Below are positions 17,971 to 24,941 of a stretch of DNA of 64,000 bases, in pieces. Under the pieces are notes generated by a model. That model did not search any database, was not told where the DNA came from, and saw only the letters and a list, made by a program, of their open reading frames with translations. The stretch is from Eubacteriales bacterium (lineage in GTDB: Bacteria; Bacillota; Clostridia; Oscillospirales; SIG627), in assembly GCA_045541915.1 (NCBI GenBank), contig JAZQJZ010000037.1:52735-116734 (forward strand), written 5' to 3'. A program made the translations under genes and the position numbers. Numbering within the stretch: position 1 is the first letter of the stretch; each line of letters begins with the position of its first letter.

Positions 17971-18648
17971 ATGTTCAAGGTTATGGTGGTGGAGGATGAC
18001 GCCAATACGCGCCTTTTATTTTGCAAGATTTTAGAGCAAAACGGTTATTCTCCCATTGCCGCAAAGGATGGGGAGGATGCCCTGGAAAAAATGGATCACG
18101 AGCATGTGGATCTGATTGTGCTTGATGTGATGATGCCCCGGATGGACGGATTCGAATTTACCCGCACCCTGCGCTTTGCCGACTGCAACATTCCCATTTT
18201 AATGATCACGGCAAAGGACGGCCGGATGGACAAACGGGAAGGTTTTTTGGTGGGGACAGATGATTATATGACAAAGCCGGTGGATGAAGAGGAAATGCTC
18301 CTTCGGATCGCGGCCCTTTTGCGCAGAAGCCGCATCAATTCTTCTCACCGAATTGAGATCGGACAGACGGTGTTGGATTATGATTCCCTTTCAGTGATCA
18401 CACCCGAGGGAAGCACTTTCTTGCCTCAAAAGGAATTTTTGGTGCTTTTTAAGCTCCTTTCCTTCCAAAACAAAATCTTCACCCGGCGTCAGCTGATGGA
18501 CGAGATCTGGAATCTGGATTCCGAAAGTGACGAGAGAACTGTGGATGTTCACATTCATCGCTTGCGGGATCGCTTTGAGAACAATCCGGATTTTCAGATC
18601 CAGACCATTCGCGGTCTGGGCTATAAGGCGGTGAAAAAGAATGGCTAG
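17971..18648 (+). CDS. OmpR-family response regulator (HssR-like)
   Basis: VEDD, LDVMMP, KP, RTVDVHIHRLR and TIRGLGY motifs. Confidence 0.93.
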   Translation: MFKVMVVEDDANTRLLFCKILEQNGYSPIAAKDGEDALEKMDHEHVDLIVLDVMMPRMDGFEFTRTLRFADCNIPILMITAKDGRMDKREGFLVGTDDYMTKPVDEEEMLLRIAALLRRSRINSSHRIEIGQTVLDYDSLSVITPEGSTFLPQKEFLVLFKLLSFQNKIFTRRQLMDEIWNLDSESDERTVDVHIHRLRDRFENNPDFQIQTIRGLGYKAVKKNG

Positions 18649-19669
18649 ACCTTACCGGTTTCGAAATCTGATCAGCCTGTTTGTGATCATGGTGATGTTC
18701 AGCTCCAGCTTTTTGACGGTGCTTTGCTTTATTCTGCTTCGGATATTCCGTCTGTTGCCCACTGCGTTTTTTGCCACTGTCTGGATGCCGGTGGTTTTGA
18801 TGCTGGTGGTCAATGTGATCACGGCTTGTGTGCACTTTTTTCTGGTTCCAAAGCTGATTCGCCCCATTGAATCTCTGATTGATGCCACAGGCAAAGTGGC
18901 AAAAGGGGATTTTTCCGTTCGGGTCTCCTCGGAGGATATGGTGGGAGAGGTGAAGGAATTGGTGGATAGCTTTAATGCCATGACCGAGGAACTGGGGAGC
19001 ACCGAGATCTTTCGAAGTGATTTTATTCGGGATTTTTCCCATGAATTTAAAACACCCATTGTCTCCATGAAGGGCTTTGCCCGACAATTGAAAAATCCGC
19101 TTCTTTCCGAGGAAGAAAGACAGCAATATTGCGACATTATCATTTCCGAATCGGAGAGATTGAGCAATATGAGCGCCGGGATCTTGCTGCTTTCAAAGTT
19201 TGAAAACCAGCAGATCATTTCCGACAAAAAGCCTTATCGGCTGGATGAACAGCTGCGAGACTGTATTTTGTTGATGGAAAAAGAATGGGAAGGGAAGAAT
19301 CTTGATCTGGATTTAAATCTGGACCCGGTGAGCATTGTGCAGAATTCAGATGTTTTGTACCACGTTTGGTCCAATCTTATCTCCAACGCGGTGAAATTTA
19401 CTCCGGAAAACGGAACGGTAGCCATTCAGCTGACGGAAAATCAGGATGCGGTGATCGTCACCGTTCGGGATACCGGAATTGGTATGACCGAAGGGCAAAT
19501 GAAGCACATTTTTGATAAGTGCTATCAGGCTGATCCGGCACATTCCGAAAAAGGAAATGGTCTTGGCCTTTGCATCGCAAAGCGGATCTGCACCCTTGCC
19601 GGGGCCAGTCTTTCGGTTCGATCCAAAATTGGGCAAGGATCGGTGTTTACTGTGATTTTGCCAAAATAA
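18641..19669 (+). CDS. HAMP-domain sensor histidine kinase (intramembrane-sensing type)
   Basis: Two TM helices with a short loop, SHEFKTP H-box, NAVKF, DTGIG and GNGLGL boxes. Confidence 0.93.
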   Translation: MARPYRFRNLISLFVIMVMFSSSFLTVLCFILLRIFRLLPTAFFATVWMPVVLMLVVNVITACVHFFLVPKLIRPIESLIDATGKVAKGDFSVRVSSEDMVGEVKELVDSFNAMTEELGSTEIFRSDFIRDFSHEFKTPIVSMKGFARQLKNPLLSEEERQQYCDIIISESERLSNMSAGILLLSKFENQQIISDKKPYRLDEQLRDCILLMEKEWEGKNLDLDLNLDPVSIVQNSDVLYHVWSNLISNAVKFTPENGTVAIQLTENQDAVIVTVRDTGIGMTEGQMKHIFDKCYQADPAHSEKGNGLGLCIAKRICTLAGASLSVRSKIGQGSVFTVILPK

Positions 19670-19689
19670 ATAAAATGAAATAAAAAAAG

Positions 19690-19725
19690 AAAAAGCCTTT
19701 GCTGAATCAAGCAAGGGCTTTTTTT
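19690..19725. terminator. Bidirectional terminator at the left edge of the phage-like cassette
   Basis: AAAAAGCCTTTGCT...AGCAAGGGCTTTTTTT. Confidence 0.8.
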
Positions 19726-19742: not shown

Positions 19743-19949
19743 TCATTTTTTTGGAATTCGGTGAACGCTGAACTTGGTTCTGGAAAACTTCCTTCCCCGG
19801 ATGGTTTGATACACATTTCGGTAAACAGCATCACGGGAAATTTTCATGCAGGAGGAAAGCTGCGGCACCGTGTCCCACACCCCAAGACACAATTCCATAT
19901 CGGAAGACAGATCATATGCGGCATAGCATACGTGCTTTATTGGTATCAC
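19743..19949 (-). CDS. Small basic phage-type protein, putative DNA-binding regulator
   Basis: 68 aa with YAAYD...ELCLGVWDTVPQLSSCMKISRDAVYR (HTH-like) and a basic tail, preceded by a near-consensus promoter. Start codon uncertain. Confidence 0.6.
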   Translation of the reverse strand: MIPIKHVCYAAYDLSSDMELCLGVWDTVPQLSSCMKISRDAVYRNVYQTIRGRKFSRTKFSVHRIPKK

Positions 19950-19969
19950 CTCTCATTCTCTCTGAAGGT

Positions 19970-20059
19970 ATTATAACACGAAAAATCGTAATCGTCAATA
20001 ATTTTTTGCGAAAAATCGTGCGTAAAAATTGATGGTATCTCGAAATCTCGTGATAAAAT
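19970..20059. promoter_or_regulatory. Divergent promoters with three operator-like repeats (consensus CACGA-N4-TCGTG)
   Basis: Minus: TTGACG-N17-TATAAT (19998-19970). Plus: extended TGnTAAAAT (20051-20059). CGAAAAATCGT at 19979 and 20009, CGAAATCTCGT at 20041. Confidence 0.65.
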
Positions 20060-20090
20060 AGCATCAGAAAGGAGGGGATGCCCTTGATTG

Positions 20091-20142
20091 TGTGAAAAAG
20101 TCTGTGGAAAAGTATGTGGAATGTGAAAAAGTGTGTGGAAAA
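20091..20142. promoter_or_regulatory. DnaA-box cluster
   Basis: TGTGAAAAA (20091), TGTGGAAAA (20103), TGTGGAATG (20115, degenerate), TGTGAAAAA (20122), TGTGGAAAA (20134); reverse complements fit TTWTNCACA. Confidence 0.6.
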
Positions 20143-20159
20143 GTGAAAGGAGAAAAAAG

Positions 20160-20489
20160 ATGGAATGGATTCGTGAAACGGTAATGGAGATTGTTTTGAC
20201 GGGACTTGGCATTTTTCTGACTGCGTTGATGACAAAAATTGGCTCTGTGGTGGAGAAATATTGGAAAGCAAAATCCTCAGATGAAAGCATTCTTGCCATT
20301 GCCAGAACCTGCGTTGGCGCAGTGGAAATGATGTACCGGGAATGGGGCGGTGAAGAAAAATTGGAGCAAGCTATGACCTTTGCCGAGGATCTGCTTCGGG
20401 AAAAGGGAATTGATTTGCCCAAGGAGCGGATACGCCTGTTTTTGGAATCTGCTTTGGCGGAATGGAAGGGAGTGTTTTCTGACACATGA
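20160..20489 (+). CDS. Phage holin, LL-H-like family
   Basis: One N-terminal TM, then A..CVGAVEMMY...GEEKLEQA...L.EKGI...I...LESAL pattern. AAAGGAG RBS. Confidence 0.8.
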   Translation: MEWIRETVMEIVLTGLGIFLTALMTKIGSVVEKYWKAKSSDESILAIARTCVGAVEMMYREWGGEEKLEQAMTFAEDLLREKGIDLPKERIRLFLESALAEWKGVFSDT

Positions 20490-20893
20490 TGGATCTTGCA
20501 AAAAATCTGGCGGTGATCCTGGGTCTTGTGGTTTCCTTGGGAACGGTATTCACCGTCACCCTTCCGGGATTACGAAATAAAATAAAAGCAAAATGGAAAG
20601 AAGGGGATGATCTTCGGACAGAAATTGGATATTTGCGCGGTCTTCTGGAGGAACACGTAAAAAAAGATCATTCCAAGGAAGAGGAAGCTTGTTTGCAAAA
20701 GGAAGTGGATATTTGTGTTCTGCGGGATCTGATCACCACCCTGTATTACAAATACTCCCACGAAAAAAAAATTCCCGTTTATGCTATGGAGGACATTACG
20801 GCACTTTATCAGCTCTATCAAAAAAGGGGCGGCAATTCTTATGTACAAGTGCTTATGCGTCAGATCATAGAAGAATGGGAAGTGATGCATTGA
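20486..20893 (+). CDS. Phage lysis-module membrane protein (holin-associated)
   Basis: N-terminal TM, coiled coil, and C-terminal LR..I...YY...LYQLYQKRGGNS motif typical of ORFs next to holins in Firmicutes phages. Confidence 0.65.
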   Translation: MMDLAKNLAVILGLVVSLGTVFTVTLPGLRNKIKAKWKEGDDLRTEIGYLRGLLEEHVKKDHSKEEEACLQKEVDICVLRDLITTLYYKYSHEKKIPVYAMEDITALYQLYQKRGGNSYVQVLMRQIIEEWEVMH

Positions 20894-20900
20894 AGAAAGG

Positions 20901-22700
20901 ATGAAAACTATGAGAAATATCAGCGTTGATCTCACGCAAGACAGCCCGACTCCTCAATACCTGTTTGTGGGATATGAGGGGGAACACAATGCCACACGTC
21001 TGAAGGTGGTATTGCCGGAACGGATGCGCCTTTCCGGAGAAGTACAGTACCGCTTTTTGTTTGAGACGGCAAGGGGGGAAGCGGTTTTTTCCGCAGCCCT
21101 GACACCGGAAGAGGATGGCAGCCTTTCGGTTTTATTGGCACAGGCCCTTATGGTGCCGCCGGTGTTAAAGGCTTATGTGGGTTGTTATGGCACCGAAAAC
21201 GGCGAAACCGTACTGGTGGCCAAAACACCCCAAATGCTCCTTGGGGTGCAAAAGAGCATTCCGGAAACACAGGAAGAGGTGAATGTAAATGGCGCTTGTG
21301 TTCCGGGGCTTAAGATCGAGGATCGCCTTTTAAAGGACAGTGAAAATCCGGTGGAAAGCCGCGCCATTTATCAGGAATTGGAGAAAAAGATCGGCAAAGG
21401 AGATGTGGCGGGAAGCGTTCACGCTCCCACTCTGGCATCCGCTTCTTCACCGGTTTCGGAAAGGGCGGTTTCCTATGCATTGGAAAATAAGGTCTCTTGG
21501 AGCGATGTGGTCTTTGATCTGGACTCTTCTTTGCCCAGTGCCCTGAAGGTTCCCAGCGAAACTGCCACGGTGTCAGCACTGGAAAAGAAGGTGGGATGGG
21601 AGAATACTGTCTCTTCCGTTTCCAGTACCACCGCCTCGAATGACAAAATCCCCACCGAAAAGGCAGTTTCCCATGCCTTGAAAGAAAAGTTGAGCTGGGA
21701 CAATGTGTCCACAGACATTTCCGCTTCTGCTTTTTCCGATGAAAAGGTTCCCTCGGAAAAAGCGGTGAGCGTTGCTCTTTCCAGAAAATTCGACGCGGAC
21801 GATCTTTTGGTGTATATGCCCTCGGACTCGTTGACCGACACCTCCGATCCCTTGGAGCAAATGAAAAAAGCAGTTTCCGCCTATGGCCTGGGGAGACATT
21901 TTTCCCAATATGTGCAAAAGGGGAATGTGGAATCTTCTTTTTCTGCCACAAGCAAAAATCCGGTTCAGAACAAGGTGGTTTCCGCAAATGTAGCAAATGC
22001 CTTGAAAGGCACGGCAAGCGGTACTTTTGTTCACCTTGACGACATTTCACCTTTAGAACACGAAATGAAGGTAACCCTTTCCGGGGAAGAAGAATCTCTT
22101 GCCAATGCCACGCTGAAGAGGTGCGGCAAAAACCTATTTGATCCCCAGTCTCTTGTGGATTGCGGCGGTGTGATACAGGAGGATGGAGCCATTTATTTTG
22201 CAAGGGCCAATTCCATTTCGCAAACGACGGTTTTTCAAGGGGACTTTGGAACCAAGCGGCTTACTTTTTCATATAAAGTGAAGACTGCCGCTGCCGGCGG
22301 TTCGTCCGGCGCCCGCTTTTTTATTTATTACAAGGACGGTACCTATGAATATGTGGGCAATGTATCCGGTTTAGATTATCAGGAAATCGTGGTGACCACT
22401 AGAATCGGCTATCAATTTGATCGAATCGTTGGGGATTATGGCTCGGCCTTAAATTCCACCTGGATCAAGGATATACAAATAGAGGTAGGCACAACCAAAA
22501 CTGACTATGAAGCTTATTTCTGCACCGAATACGAACTAAATGCCGACGGAACTGTGGATGGCGTGAAAAGCCTTTATCCGGTGACTGTACTGTCAACCGA
22601 TTCCACCGGTGTAAATGTGAAAGCAGAGTACAACAAAGATACAAACAAGGTGATGGAAAACCTTGTCAATGCCATTATTTCATTAGGAGGAAATGTATAA
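20901..22700 (+). CDS. Tail-fibre / receptor-binding-like protein (BppU-like N-terminus, repeat stalk, carbohydrate-binding-like C-terminus)
   Basis: GYEGEHNATRL N-terminal motif; repeats of about 34 aa (NPVESRAI, SPVSERAV, KVPSETAT, KIPTEKAV, KVPSEKAV, NPVQNKVV); GKNLFD...IQIEVGTTKTDYEAY domain. Confidence 0.7.
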   Translation: MKTMRNISVDLTQDSPTPQYLFVGYEGEHNATRLKVVLPERMRLSGEVQYRFLFETARGEAVFSAALTPEEDGSLSVLLAQALMVPPVLKAYVGCYGTENGETVLVAKTPQMLLGVQKSIPETQEEVNVNGACVPGLKIEDRLLKDSENPVESRAIYQELEKKIGKGDVAGSVHAPTLASASSPVSERAVSYALENKVSWSDVVFDLDSSLPSALKVPSETATVSALEKKVGWENTVSSVSSTTASNDKIPTEKAVSHALKEKLSWDNVSTDISASAFSDEKVPSEKAVSVALSRKFDADDLLVYMPSDSLTDTSDPLEQMKKAVSAYGLGRHFSQYVQKGNVESSFSATSKNPVQNKVVSANVANALKGTASGTFVHLDDISPLEHEMKVTLSGEEESLANATLKRCGKNLFDPQSLVDCGGVIQEDGAIYFARANSISQTTVFQGDFGTKRLTFSYKVKTAAAGGSSGARFFIYYKDGTYEYVGNVSGLDYQEIVVTTRIGYQFDRIVGDYGSALNSTWIKDIQIEVGTTKTDYEAYFCTEYELNADGTVDGVKSLYPVTVLSTDSTGVNVKAEYNKDTNKVMENLVNAIISLGGNV

Positions 22701-22900
22701 TGTTTTGTTTGAAAGACTTTATCAAAACAGGATTGTTGAAGGCGGTAGGATTTCTGGAGGATTATCAAATCATCTTGAATGCTGCCGGTTGGTATGAAAA
22801 AGGTGTGCTGGAGGAGAGCGATCTTGCAGAAATCCAGCTTGCCGTCGAGGAATATAATTTGGAAAAATACGGAAATCATTCAACGGCGGAGGCTGTATGA
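22700..22900 (+). CDS. Small phage protein (XkdX-like, possible fibre chaperone)
   Basis: 66 aa, coupled to the fibre gene (TAATG) with an AGGAGG RBS; W.EKGVL.ESD..EI pattern. Confidence 0.55.
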   Translation: MFCLKDFIKTGLLKAVGFLEDYQIILNAAGWYEKGVLEESDLAEIQLAVEEYNLEKYGNHSTAEAV

Positions 22901-24138
22901 TCGGCTCTTCTCTGGTAAAAGCAGTTTATTTGGCGCATCAGGGGAATTATACCGCCGGAAGAAAAGGCAAAATTGAAAAAGTGACCCTTCACCATATGGC
23001 AGCCCGCTGGACGGCAAAGCGTTGCGGCGAACTGTTTCAAACACCGGGAAGGAAAGGCTCTTCCCATTACGGCATTGGCTATGAAGGGGAAATCGCCCAG
23101 TATGTCAGCGAAGGGGACACCGCATGGTCCGATTCCAACTGGGAGTCCAATCTTAGCTCCGTTTCCATCGAATGTGCCAATGAAACAATGGGAGAACCCT
23201 GGCCTGTGTCAGATTCTACCTTGGAGAGCCTTGCTTTGCTGCTTGCGGACATCTCTCTTCGCAATCATTTAGGCCCTTACAAAAAAGGAGAAAATTTGAC
23301 TTGGCATCAGATGTACAGTGCCACCGCTTGCCCCGGCGCCTTCCTTCTTTCCAAAATGGATGAGATTGCCGAAAGGGCCAACAAACTCATCGCGAACGGT
23401 ATGCCTGCTGCGGAAAAAAAGCGGGAGGTAACGGTATCCTACCAGGTCTTTACCGATCAATGGCTGGGAAATATCTATCGGCATGATCCAAAGGATCCGA
23501 TCTTTGGATATGCCGGGATTTTCGGTCAGGGGATCAGCGGACTTTTTGTCAATGCAGACGTGGGAAATGTCTTCTATCAGGCCCACATCAAAGGGGGACA
23601 GTGGCTTCCTGAGGTAAAAAATCGAGAGGATTTTGCCGGCATCCTGGGCAGAGAAATGGACGGCGTAATGATCCGGGGCGACAACATCGGGATCTCCTAT
23701 CAAGTGCACACCAAGGAAGACGGCTGGCTGGGTGTGATCCGCGGTTATGATAAATCCGATCCTCAAAACGGCTATGCCGGTATCTTGGGACATACCATTG
23801 ACGGCATTATGATCTGGGCCGATCCGATCCTGGCAGAGGAAACAGCAGAAAAAAATCTTTCGCAGGAAGAGGTCCCCCCCTTGCCCGAGGAAGAAAAAGT
23901 GAAAGAGTCCGAGGAAGCAGAGCCGGAGGAAGCAGAGCCGGAGGAAGCAGAGCCGGAGGAAGCAGAGCCGGAGGGAGCAGAGCCGGAGGAAGCAGAGCCG
24001 GAGGAAGCAGAGCCGGAGGAAGCAGAGCCGGAGGAAGCAGAGCCGGAGGAAAAGAAATCAAAAAAGCAACGAATTCTGGAAATTCTGAAGAATCTTTTTC
24101 ATTTGATCAAGACATTTTTTGATTTTTTAAAGCCCTAA
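22897..24138 (+). CDS. N-acetylmuramoyl-L-alanine amidase (Amidase_2 endolysin) with ChW-like repeats, acidic linker and amphipathic C-terminal helix
   Basis: Zn/catalytic motifs present: TLHHMA, SSHYGIG, SIECAN, WHQMYSATACPG. Three YQ.H....WL-type repeats. Confidence 0.88.
   Translation: MIGSSLVKAVYLAHQGNYTAGRKGKIEKVTLHHMAARWTAKRCGELFQTPGRKGSSHYGIGYEGEIAQYVSEGDTAWSDSNWESNLSSVSIECANETMGEPWPVSDSTLESLALLLADISLRNHLGPYKKGENLTWHQMYSATACPGAFLLSKMDEIAERANKLIANGMPAAEKKREVTVSYQVFTDQWLGNIYRHDPKDPIFGYAGIFGQGISGLFVNADVGNVFYQAHIKGGQWLPEVKNREDFAGILGREMDGVMIRGDNIGISYQVHTKEDGWLGVIRGYDKSDPQNGYAGILGHTIDGIMIWADPILAEETAEKNLSQEEVPPLPEEEKVKESEEAEPEEAEPEEAEPEEAEPEGAEPEEAEPEEAEPEEAEPEEAEPEEKKSKKQRILEILKNLFHLIKTFFDFLKP
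23911..24045 (+). repeat. 15-bp tandem repeat x9 (GAGGAAGCAGAGCCG, encoding EEAEP)
   Basis: Nine units read directly; unit 5 has one A>G change (EGAEP). Confidence 0.97.
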
Positions 24139-24143
24139 AAAAC

Positions 24144-24178
24144 AAAAAAGACCTTGTTTTTACACAAGGTCTTTTTTT
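24144..24178 (+). terminator. Intrinsic terminator closing the cassette
   Basis: AAAAAAGACCTTGT...ACAAGGTCTTTTTTT. Confidence 0.85.
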
Positions 24179-24282
24179 ATGTGTATAGGTTACAAAAAAG
24201 GTATTTTTGGTCGTTTTGCGTATGACTTCGAACTTTCAATAAAATTCAAAATCGTCTGCGAAGCGGATGCCTTCGACACCTA

Positions 24283-24344
24283 TTCACGATTCACTTTTAG
24301 CAGTTACCTAATCGACAAGTTTTGAGAGAAGAGTGAATCGTGAA
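24283..24344. repeat. 13-bp perfect inverted repeat (REP/MITE-like)
   Basis: TTCACGATTCACT (24283-24295) and AGTGAATCGTGAA (24332-24344). Confidence 0.6.
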
Positions 24345-24349
24345 AAAGT

Positions 24350-24385
24350 AAAATCGACAAGCTTCTGTCGAAACTTGTCGATTTT
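24350..24385 (-). terminator. Terminator of tRNA-Ala
   Basis: AAAATCGACAAG...CTTGTCGATTTT hairpin abutting the CCA end. Confidence 0.75.
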
Positions 24386-24461
24386 TGGTGGAGCATAGGG
24401 GACTTGAACCCCTGACCCCAACACTGCCAGTGTTGTGCGCTCCCAACTGCGCTAATGCCCC
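24386..24461 (-). tRNA. tRNA-Ala (GGC)
   Basis: GGGGCATTAGCGCAGTTGGGAGCG-CAACA-CTGGCAG-TGTTG-GGGTCAGGGGTTCAAGTCCCCTATGCTCCACCA, 76 nt, with the G3:U70 pair. Confidence 0.97.
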
Positions 24462-24732: not shown

Positions 24733-24738
24733 CAGTAT

Positions 24739-24905
24739 TCGATAGAGGCGCACTGCATCAAGAGTACTCGAACCCGAAAAAGGCTTGCCGGAGCCGGGGC
24801 GAGAAAAGGGGTGGGTGCCGAAGCAGACTTTTGCGGCAAAAAAGTCCGTCTGGCAGCTTGGAGAATATCCCTGTTGTTGTCGCAGAAATGCGGAGAGCTA
24901 TCCGA
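24739..24905 (+). ncRNA. Lysine riboswitch (L-box)
   Basis: GATAGAGGCGC...AAGAGTA...AAAGGGG...GCCGAAG...TGG...GAATA...TGTCGC-GAAA-GCGGAGAGCTATC fits the L-box consensus and precedes dapA-lysC-lysA. Confidence 0.92.
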
Positions 24906-24941
24906 CTTCCCAAAGGGGTCTATATGTTTTTTGGTGATAAG

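Follow-up and report, generated by a model that had tools for sequence, protein, structure and literature searches.

Phage lysis genes and a fibre gene that stand in a bacterial chromosome with no phage around them raise the question of what they are kept for. The 64,000-nt stretch of contig JAZQJZ010000037.1 analyzed here (the window; Eubacteriales bacterium, assembly GCA_045541915.1) holds such a locus at positions 19743-24178, termed the cassette: a small divergent open reading frame (ORF), sORF68, and five plus-strand genes for a holin, the membrane protein orf135, a fibre, the small protein orf66 and an amidase. A first-pass annotation of the same letters had described a self-contained, domesticated phage unit that releases or displays a fibre adhesin, or that serves in mother-cell lysis or spore-surface decoration. 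The analysis reported below favours another answer, to which a probability of roughly 0.62 was given: that the cassette is the lysis and receptor-binding-fibre operon of a dispersed, vertically inherited, podovirus-derived particle system resembling a gene transfer agent (GTA), and that it corresponds to operon II of the Faecalibacterium prausnitzii GTA (FpGTA).

Particle genes elsewhere in the genome

The genome comprises 1.77 Mb in 40 contigs and is 89.5% complete. Scans of it with PF03354, PF04860, PF05065, PF10145, PF05709 and PF05133 gave no match, and PF05065 and PF04860 were without a match in all 20 genomes of the genus set (uncultured Clostridia, all metagenome-assembled, 63-95% complete). 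The reading that the genome has no virion genes, drawn from the six-model scans, was overturned by a P22-type portal (PF16510) and a capsid protein (PF25209); the virion genes were found using the PF03237 profile and a promoter motif described below.

On contig C36 these genes form an operon in the order portal, p151, capsid protein, p127, nozzle and p319, with a LysR gene on one side and RNase H/MnmA on the other. The portal was matched by PF16510 (E 5e-15) and phrog_156, and the 278-aa capsid protein by PF25209, phrog_267 (E 1e-38) and the capsid protein of PDB entry 8e16 (E 5e-31). The 567-aa nozzle gave an AlphaFold2 (AF2) model of pLDDT 90.4 with a podovirus tail nozzle fold, matching P22 gp10 (TMt 0.74) and also T7 gp12, Sf6 and SU10. 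Sequence searches of the PDB returned nothing for the nozzle, p319, orf135 or the fibre, and an Atlas search with p319 was uninformative. The operon encodes no fibre or lysin. Genes for a large terminase (TerL; Terminase_3/6N) and a gp3-like small terminase (TerS) lie on contig C7 (62803-66088), separated by those for a thiamine transporter and a thiamine pyrophosphokinase.

Cassette, C36 operon and C7 pair are all flanked by housekeeping genes, and integrase matches lie elsewhere, as seen in a check of neighbourhoods that was not an exhaustive search. Judged by neighbourhood, the chromosome appears to hold phage-derived structural, packaging and lysis genes free of replication, lysogeny and integration modules, the content by which a GTA is recognized. 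The earlier statement that virion genes are missing is correct for the locus and wrong for the genome, where they lie on other contigs. The cassette can likewise not be called self-contained, given the portal-capsid-nozzle operon, the TerS/TerL pair and a promoter motif that these share with the cassettes of sister species. The annotation had proposed a look for a genomic locus that the fibre could complement, and the operon and terminase pair are such a find.

Two nozzle homologues (P0237 and P0240, about 32% identity) come from Cohnella and Vallitalea, so that the family of this head-tail module extends beyond the order.

Conservation and selection

Among the genus genomes TerL was present in 20/20 (73-84% identity) and the portal in 19/20 (70-83% identity). 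The head operon is syntenic in relatives G011 and G008, with a capsid protein 88% identical, and portal and TerL are spaced 10-84 kb apart in relatives where both are on one contig. In the order the portal was found in 116 of 251 sampled genomes, mostly in one copy; identities were 56-66% to members of its own family and fell to about 50% in a second one and to about 30% in more remote ones, and the portal was matched by more than 1,171 clusters at 90% identity.

The cassette is confined more closely. orf135 was a single-copy gene in 14 of the 20 genus genomes; completeness is 71-94% in the six genomes that lack it, among which G014 carries part of a holin where a contig ends. No match was obtained in 11 genomes of the family's other genera, and weak matches to the C-terminal domain were seen in 13 of 249 other genomes of the order. 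The fibre N-domain gave a strong single match in 13/20 genomes. In sister species the holin-orf135-fibre-lysin block adjoins the same HAD gene or the same pair of response regulator and kinase (RR-HK). This left-hand anchor is constant whether or not a tRNA lies downstream, and the genes 3' of the block are housekeeping genes (his genes in G008, for example). All cassette frames are open in the relatives (14 species), at protein identities of 31-59%. No prophage, integrase or virion gene was present at the cassette site in the 14 relatives' loci examined, and no att-like direct repeats, the tRNA end included, were seen flanking the cassette.

In the closest pairs of orf135 the nonsynonymous proportion (pN) was 0.14-0.19 vs. 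0.56-0.73 for the synonymous one (pS), ratios that are rough because synonymous sites are near saturation; the holin was similar, and the flanking HAD gene gave the same figures in the same pairs. Distances of holin plus orf135 tracked those of the portal in nine genomes (Mantel r 0.93, a value reached in 1 permutation of 5000), a result that expresses agreement and not a probability because related genomes are not independent. By these sequence comparisons the cassette is vertically inherited under purifying selection and co-diverges with core genes. Because it occupies the same place in sister species, with open frames, pN far below pS, no att repeats and no prophage at the site, it is domesticated rather than decaying, and on this point the first-pass annotation was right.

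Promoters and a shared motif

An 18-nt promoter motif, TGTCATTGCGTG(T/G)CAGTA, was found at 40 places in 14 of the 20 genus genomes (reversed control, 0). In 30 loci that were fetched, the downstream genes were the portal (13), the holin cassette (7), a DUF4417 operon (3), TerS (2) and a pair of BppU_N/collagen fibre and Amidase_2 genes (1), with 4 unclear. Portal, TerS, DUF4417 and, in seven species, cassette promoters carry this motif, a candidate common control element, which the cassette of this genome does not have. A degenerate copy lies 5' of the small-terminase gene in this genome, and in two further genera of the family the portal gene is preceded by weaker forms.

Two types of upstream region were distinguished at the cassettes. 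The first, found in this genome and in G009, G003, G004, G016, G018 and G019, has an extended -10 (TGnTA(T/A)AAT), mostly with CGAAAnnTCGT operator-like sites; a divergent sORF68 accompanies the cassette in five relatives (G003, G004, G011, G016 and G019), in each case with its own TTGACA-17-TATAAT promoter and an operator in the spacer. The second, in G008, G015, G007, G013, G012, G017 and G002, has TGTCATTGCGTGTCAGTA placed 11 nt 5' of a TAtnAT hexamer. sORF68 has a conserved core (YAAY...C(L/M)GVWD) and no family match in Pfam, PHROGs or NCBIfam. The 1.77-Mb genome contains seven operator-like sites, three of them within 73 bp at the cassette; no other cluster of distinct sites was found in it, and a looser pattern added one overlapping palindrome on C7.

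Several further observations concern these control regions. The 18-nt motif is similar to a direct repeat of the PhoB type (TGTCA-N6-TGTCA), and an OmpR-family RR-HK pair adjoins the cassette; motif-bearing cassettes occur both with and without this pair alongside. A leader mini-ORF at 20078-20095 (MPLIV-stop) has a strong Shine-Dalgarno sequence, and similar mini-ORFs occupy the same place in G009 and G003. At C12:170343-172941 the exact motif and a TTGACA-17-TATAAT promoter precede DUF4417 (E 3e-65) and three unknown proteins, divergent from a gene for a 209-aa XerC/D-like recombinase; a DUF4417 gene also follows the motif in G012 and G014. The DUF4417 operon may be a further part or a regulator of the particle system.

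Fibre

The fibre had no sequence family match in Pfam, PHROGs, the PDB or NCBIfam. The Pfam BppU_N model gave no match to it at E up to 0.1 and a borderline one to the fibre of G005 (22.4 bits vs. a cut-off of 23.1). In the latter genome, which is 94% complete, the motif is followed by a BppU_N/collagen/DUF6273 fibre and then an Amidase_2 gene (C8, locus L114, 2917-5953). The AF2 model of the window fibre was confident for the N-domain (residues 1-120) and the C-terminal beta-sandwich and unreliable in the middle. Using Foldseek, the N-domain superposed on BppU of TP901-1 (3uh8; TMt 0.65, rmsd 3.5 Å over 125 columns) and also matched 4v96, 6v8i, 80alpha and further baseplate chains, while the head beta-sandwich resembled CBM4/16/29 modules. 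Against a viral structure library the top matches were tail fibre and BppU proteins. The modelled N-domain has the BppU-type fold, and the fibre is predicted to be a receptor-binding protein with a virion-attachment domain and a carbohydrate-binding head.

The gene is single copy and the sole one of its type in the genome. Shafts and heads differ greatly between species, several having collagen repeats. tblastn against isolated phages gave no match, and 40 pattern matches to the N-domain in IMG/VR yielded 0 confirmed; five loci were found in metagenome contigs, of which two were the HAD-holin-orf135-fibre locus and three were weak matches of <40 residues. A predicted complex of nozzle, p127 and fibre N-domain scored 0.00, which gives no verdict and is evidence neither way.

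Lysis proteins

The holin was assigned to the LL-H family by PF09682 (E 4.9e-12; 46.6 bits vs. a gathering cut-off of 24.9) and by the holin family phrog_608; TIGR01673 of NCBIfam reached 24.3 bits, under its cut-off of 34.75. A single N-terminal transmembrane (TM) helix was read from the sequence. In the alignment of relatives the conserved start is ATG 20160, not the annotated 20133.

orf135 is the best conserved protein of the cassette, with 23 invariant residues across 14 sequences. Basic residues follow its N-terminal TM helix, and its C-terminal domain matched phrog_4105 (E 1.6e-8). The family of this domain also occurs in viral clusters of the Atlas, and tblastn against isolated phages gave one weak match. 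Among the annotated viral or genomic loci an endolysin neighbour was present in 1 of 7 (19 loci fetched). The phrog_4105 family says little about the function of orf135 because its relatives in viral contigs lie mostly amid DNA-metabolism genes. An identity as XhlA was rejected, as there was no PF10779 match and the TM helix is N-terminal. orf135 is a putative holin partner. No family match was found for orf66 in Pfam or PHROGs; it is 75% identical over 51 residues in G008, and one may guess that it is a fibre assembly factor.

The amidase was matched by PF01510 (E 4.1e-17; 63.2 bits vs. a cut-off of 26) and by endolysin PHROGs down to E 1.5e-40 (phrog_7698). Its residues H32, H33, Y58, H137 and C145 are invariant in 7/7 Amidase_2 orthologues. 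By analogy with T7 lysozyme these are presumably the Zn and catalytic residues; the earlier claim of intact Zn ligands is borne out as to conservation. Besides its Amidase_2 domain the enzyme has two wall-binding-like repeats, a linker of EEAEP repeats and, at the C-terminus, an amphipathic helix. As read from the sequence, neither the amidase nor the fibre shows a signal peptide. Across species the lysin is of the Amidase_2 type in six species and the Amidase_3 type in eight. A Pro/Glu-rich linker and amphipathic helix form the common tail of most lysins of both types, the Amidase_2 lysins of G009 and G018 being without it; the linker varies between species in length and composition, and the terminal helix is kept, even on Amidase_3 enzymes. 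In the window the linker is encoded by ten tandem 15-nt units (23874-24079). PADLOC gave no match for any of the six cassette proteins, and NCBIfam nothing over its cut-offs.

Proposed working

If the cassette is the lysis and fibre operon of a GTA-like system, the head and tail genes (portal, p151, capsid, p127, nozzle and p319 of C36; TerS and TerL of C7) would be switched on in some cells from promoters taken to carry the 18-nt motif. The terminase would fill small heads with DNA. Fibre supplied by the cassette would dock on the short tail through its BppU-like N-domain, and the carbohydrate-binding head would target the cell wall of a recipient. The LL-H holin and, probably, the membrane protein orf135 would give the signal-less amidase access to the wall, and the producer cell would lyse and free the particles. 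In this genome a sigma-A-type promoter proper to the cassette, overlapped by three operators, and the divergent sORF68 could allow lysis and fibre supply to be gated separately.

Weighing the evidence and the alternatives

Several results count against this account. orf135 was absent in 6/20 genomes vs. a portal present in 19/20, so the co-distribution is imperfect; in G005 no portal was found with the query used. G018 keeps holin, orf135 and amidase without a fibre, while a 118-aa N-domain protein is all that G002 has of the fibre. In G011 and G005 a fibre and an amidase are present, but not the LL-H holin or orf135. The 18-nt motif had no match near this genome's cassette at <=4 mismatches, and because it is absent here the tie of this cassette to the particle genes depends on its being orthologous to cassettes in sister species that do bear the motif. 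So far BppU-type N-domains are known only from the baseplates of long-tailed phages (siphoviruses and myoviruses); the tail here is podovirus-like, and no docking partner was found. The capsid protein had no NCBIfam family match, N4-gp56 included, and the FpGTA capsid is of the N4-gp56 family. Lastly, a search for sequencing runs listed eight DNA runs (best 0.46 of sampled words) and no RNA run, and so yielded no expression data.

Four other explanations were considered. In the one that survives best, though still unlikely, cassette and particle genes cooperate to make particles that are not GTAs and that serve in killing or kin discrimination, as a phage decoy, or as a conserved defective phage of some other benefit to the host. 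All the ties between cassette and head genes fit this equally, and fibre heads that vary so highly between species are what targeting under conflict would be expected to give. The retention of TerL and TerS in 20/20 genomes at 73-84% identity nevertheless argues that DNA packaging matters, and the closest described analogue packages host DNA (PMC12946183).

Slightly less probable again is a particle-independent role, in which holin and amidase release or display the fibre as an adhesin, much as in type 10 secretion. The promoter, operators and small regulator that the cassette here has to itself would suit such a role, as would a fibre and an amidase lacking signal peptides, and the retention of holin, orf135 and amidase in G018 suggests that the lysis part is valuable alone. 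Set against these points, the conserved part of the fibre is its virion-attachment domain, the promoter motif found at portal and TerS operons recurs at sister cassettes, and the head-nozzle operon is without a fibre or lysin of its own. With particle genes present in the genome, release or display of an adhesin, as first proposed, is not supported.

Service in mother-cell lysis or spore-surface decoration is improbable. Spo0A (E 3e-45) and SpoIVA (E 1e-110) are encoded in the genome. Amidase_2 and Amidase_3 enzymes act in Bacillus mother-cell lysis, and exosporium fibres carry collagen-like repeats, as do several of the orthologous fibres. The fibre N-domain, however, has a phage baseplate fold, and by eye the cassette promoters are sigma-A-like with an extended -10, or motif-bearing, with no sigma-E- or sigma-K-like -10 seen. 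That an inert prophage remnant sits integrated at tRNA-Ala is the least probable reading of all: every gene is of phage type and the tRNA 3' end is 248 bp away, but none of the marks of a remnant (att repeats, integrase, broken genes, patchy presence) was found, the direct repeat of the tRNA end being absent, the frames open in 14 species despite protein divergence of about 50%, with pN far below pS, the left anchor constant regardless of the tRNA, and the relatives' sites examined free of integrase and virion genes.

Cassette layout and flanking features

ORF listing confirmed that all six genes are real and uninterrupted, with five coupled and intact genes on the plus strand and a divergent small ORF, as had been annotated (Table 1). 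Holin and orf135 overlap by 4 nt, orf135 and the fibre gene are 7 nt apart, and orf66 overlaps the fibre gene by 1 nt and the amidase gene by 4 nt. The two boundary terminators of the first-pass annotation are present as hairpins; the scan itself found 11 terminator-like sites in 5.5 kb vs. 6.9 +/- 2.6 in shuffles and is for that reason weak evidence when taken alone.

Table 1. Features of the cassette and its boundaries (window coordinates)
Feature	Position	Strand	Description
Terminator-like hairpin	19688..19725	+	16-bp stem, then T run; ends the upstream RR-HK operon; left cassette boundary
sORF68	19743..19949	-	Small divergent protein, candidate local regulator; orthologues in relatives, no family match
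sORF68 promoter	19970..19998	-	TTGACG-17-TATAAT with TG; 11/12 matches; kept in relatives
Three operator-like sites, CGAAA(A/T)(A/T/C)TCGT	19979-19989, 20009-20019, 20041-20051		Overlap both divergent promoters
Extended -10 (TGATAAAAT) of cassette promoter	20051..20059	+	Predicted; read from the sequence; TGnTA(T/A)AAT in the same position in G009, G003, G004, G016 and G018
Holin, LL-H family	20133..20489	+	One N-terminal TM helix; PF09682, phrog_608; probable true start 20160
orf135	20486..20893	+	N-terminal TM helix and predicted cytoplasmic domain; phrog_4105, phage family
Fibre / receptor-binding protein (predicted), 599 aa	20901..22700	+	BppU-like N-domain 1-120, low-confidence repeat shaft, CBM-like beta-sandwich head 370-599
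orf66	22700..22900	+	Small protein 3' of fibre gene
N-acetylmuramoyl-L-alanine amidase (Amidase_2), 413 aa	22897..24138	+	PF01510, phrog_7698
Terminator-like hairpin	24144..24177		Inverted repeat I1; right cassette boundary

The nearby tRNA, placed at about 200 bp in the annotation, is tRNA-Ala(ggc) at 24386-24461(-), 248 bp beyond the amidase stop. The flanks are housekeeping genes: a HAD phosphatase, the OmpR-type response regulator and its kinase, and a lysine riboswitch-dapA-aspartokinase group. The riboswitch (RF00168; 72 bits, E 6e-18) is at 24735-24908, 5' of dapA and aspartokinase. Between the amidase stop and the tRNA a hairpin-rich spacer (24140-24420; inverted repeats I2, I3 and I8) had many matches in relatives and two in its own genome (C12), and resembles a dispersed repeat of small size or a terminator element. 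In the kinase (17971-19669) the two membrane helices are joined by hardly any outer loop, suggestive of an intramembrane-sensing kinase; its partner is of the OmpR family.

Wider implications

A broader proposal is tentative, and doubtful as a whole. The cassette, motif, portal-capsid-nozzle operon and TerS/TerL pair might together represent a widespread, unmapped GTA family of gut Oscillospirales-type Clostridia, and could underlie the GTA-like packaging that gut viromes show for taxa with no known locus. One subclade would have taken its lysis and fibre supply off the head regulon and placed it under a private repressor-type switch (sORF68 and three operators), and its amidase would be tethered by the Pro/Glu linker and amphipathic helix, an arrangement surviving the swap of catalytic domains.

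For another lineage the analysis provides a searchable gene set (P22-type portal, small capsid, nozzle, detached TerS/TerL, lysis-fibre operon) with a promoter motif that helps to find the parts. Should the GTA-like account be true, the particle-making genes, and the timing of lysis apart from head production, become testable, as does the way in which a rapidly evolving fibre head sets the recipients of DNA in rumen and gut communities. The work also shows that a seemingly self-contained locus may belong, as a single part, to a dispersed system, and that negative virion scans with a few Pfam models can mislead.

Comparison with known systems

The xhlA-xhlB-xlyA genes of PBSX in Bacillus subtilis are a domesticated lysis unit of a defective phage, made up of a membrane protein, a holin and an amidase; the PBSX lysis genes differ from the cassette in being contiguous with tail genes. 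TcdE of C. difficile is named in the context of holin-dependent (type 10) secretion (PMC6016235). The cassette resembles such systems in having a protein that lacks a signal peptide set between a holin and a wall hydrolase. In those systems, however, the cargo is a toxin or enzyme and there are no virion genes, whereas here the flanked protein is a predicted virion fibre and virion genes are present, putatively co-regulated with the cassette in sister species.

BppU of TP901-1 (ORF48; 3uh8/4v96) shares with the fibre its N-domain fold, behind which come a trimeric shaft and a part that binds the receptor. The partner of BppU is the Dit ring of a siphovirus, in contrast to the podovirus nozzle or adaptor that would be the partner here. 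In the Rhodobacter capsulatus GTA (RcGTA) the head-tail cluster, the fibre/spike genes and a holin-endolysin pair are at separate sites under common host control. The dispersal of head-tail, fibre and lysis loci is thus a feature in common, but RcGTA is siphovirus-like, belongs to an Alphaproteobacterium and has unrelated proteins and regulators.

The nearest counterpart is FpGTA. According to a 2026 report, GTA-like packaging of host DNA is common in gut Ruminococcaceae, Oscillospiraceae and Christensenellaceae, with the locus identified only in Faecalibacterium (PMC12946183). There FpGTA operon I is given as TerS, TerL, portal, scaffold and capsid, the capsid protein being named as N4-gp56 family, and operon II, about 125 kb away and about 5 kb long, as baseplate, tail fibre, receptor-binding protein (RBP), holin and endolysin; its podovirus-like particles measure about 40 nm and contain host fragments of about 9 kb (PMC12946183). 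FpGTA occupies 2536737-2546346 and 2672270-2677176 of F. prausnitzii CP030777, and the accessions RCH50849.1, RCH50851.1, RCH50852.1 and RCH48800.1 are given for it (PMC12946183). The term "undescribed system" used in the first-pass annotation is therefore apt only in part, a two-operon GTA with a fibre-holin-endolysin operon being already known for Faecalibacterium.

The likeness to what that report describes lies in a separate fibre/RBP-holin-endolysin operon far from the head operon (here on another contig), in a particle that here too would be podovirus-like and in a gut host of the same broad clostridial group; the present system is likened to FpGTA by gene content. By the same source, the differences are a baseplate gene in FpGTA operon II and a TerS/TerL pair within operon I, a pair that is here detached from the head operon; the cassette moreover begins with holin and orf135, and one subclade has its own regulator. 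The cassette is best explained as the lysis and receptor-binding operon of such a system in another lineage, with its parts more scattered and, in this subclade, with what would be a private switch.

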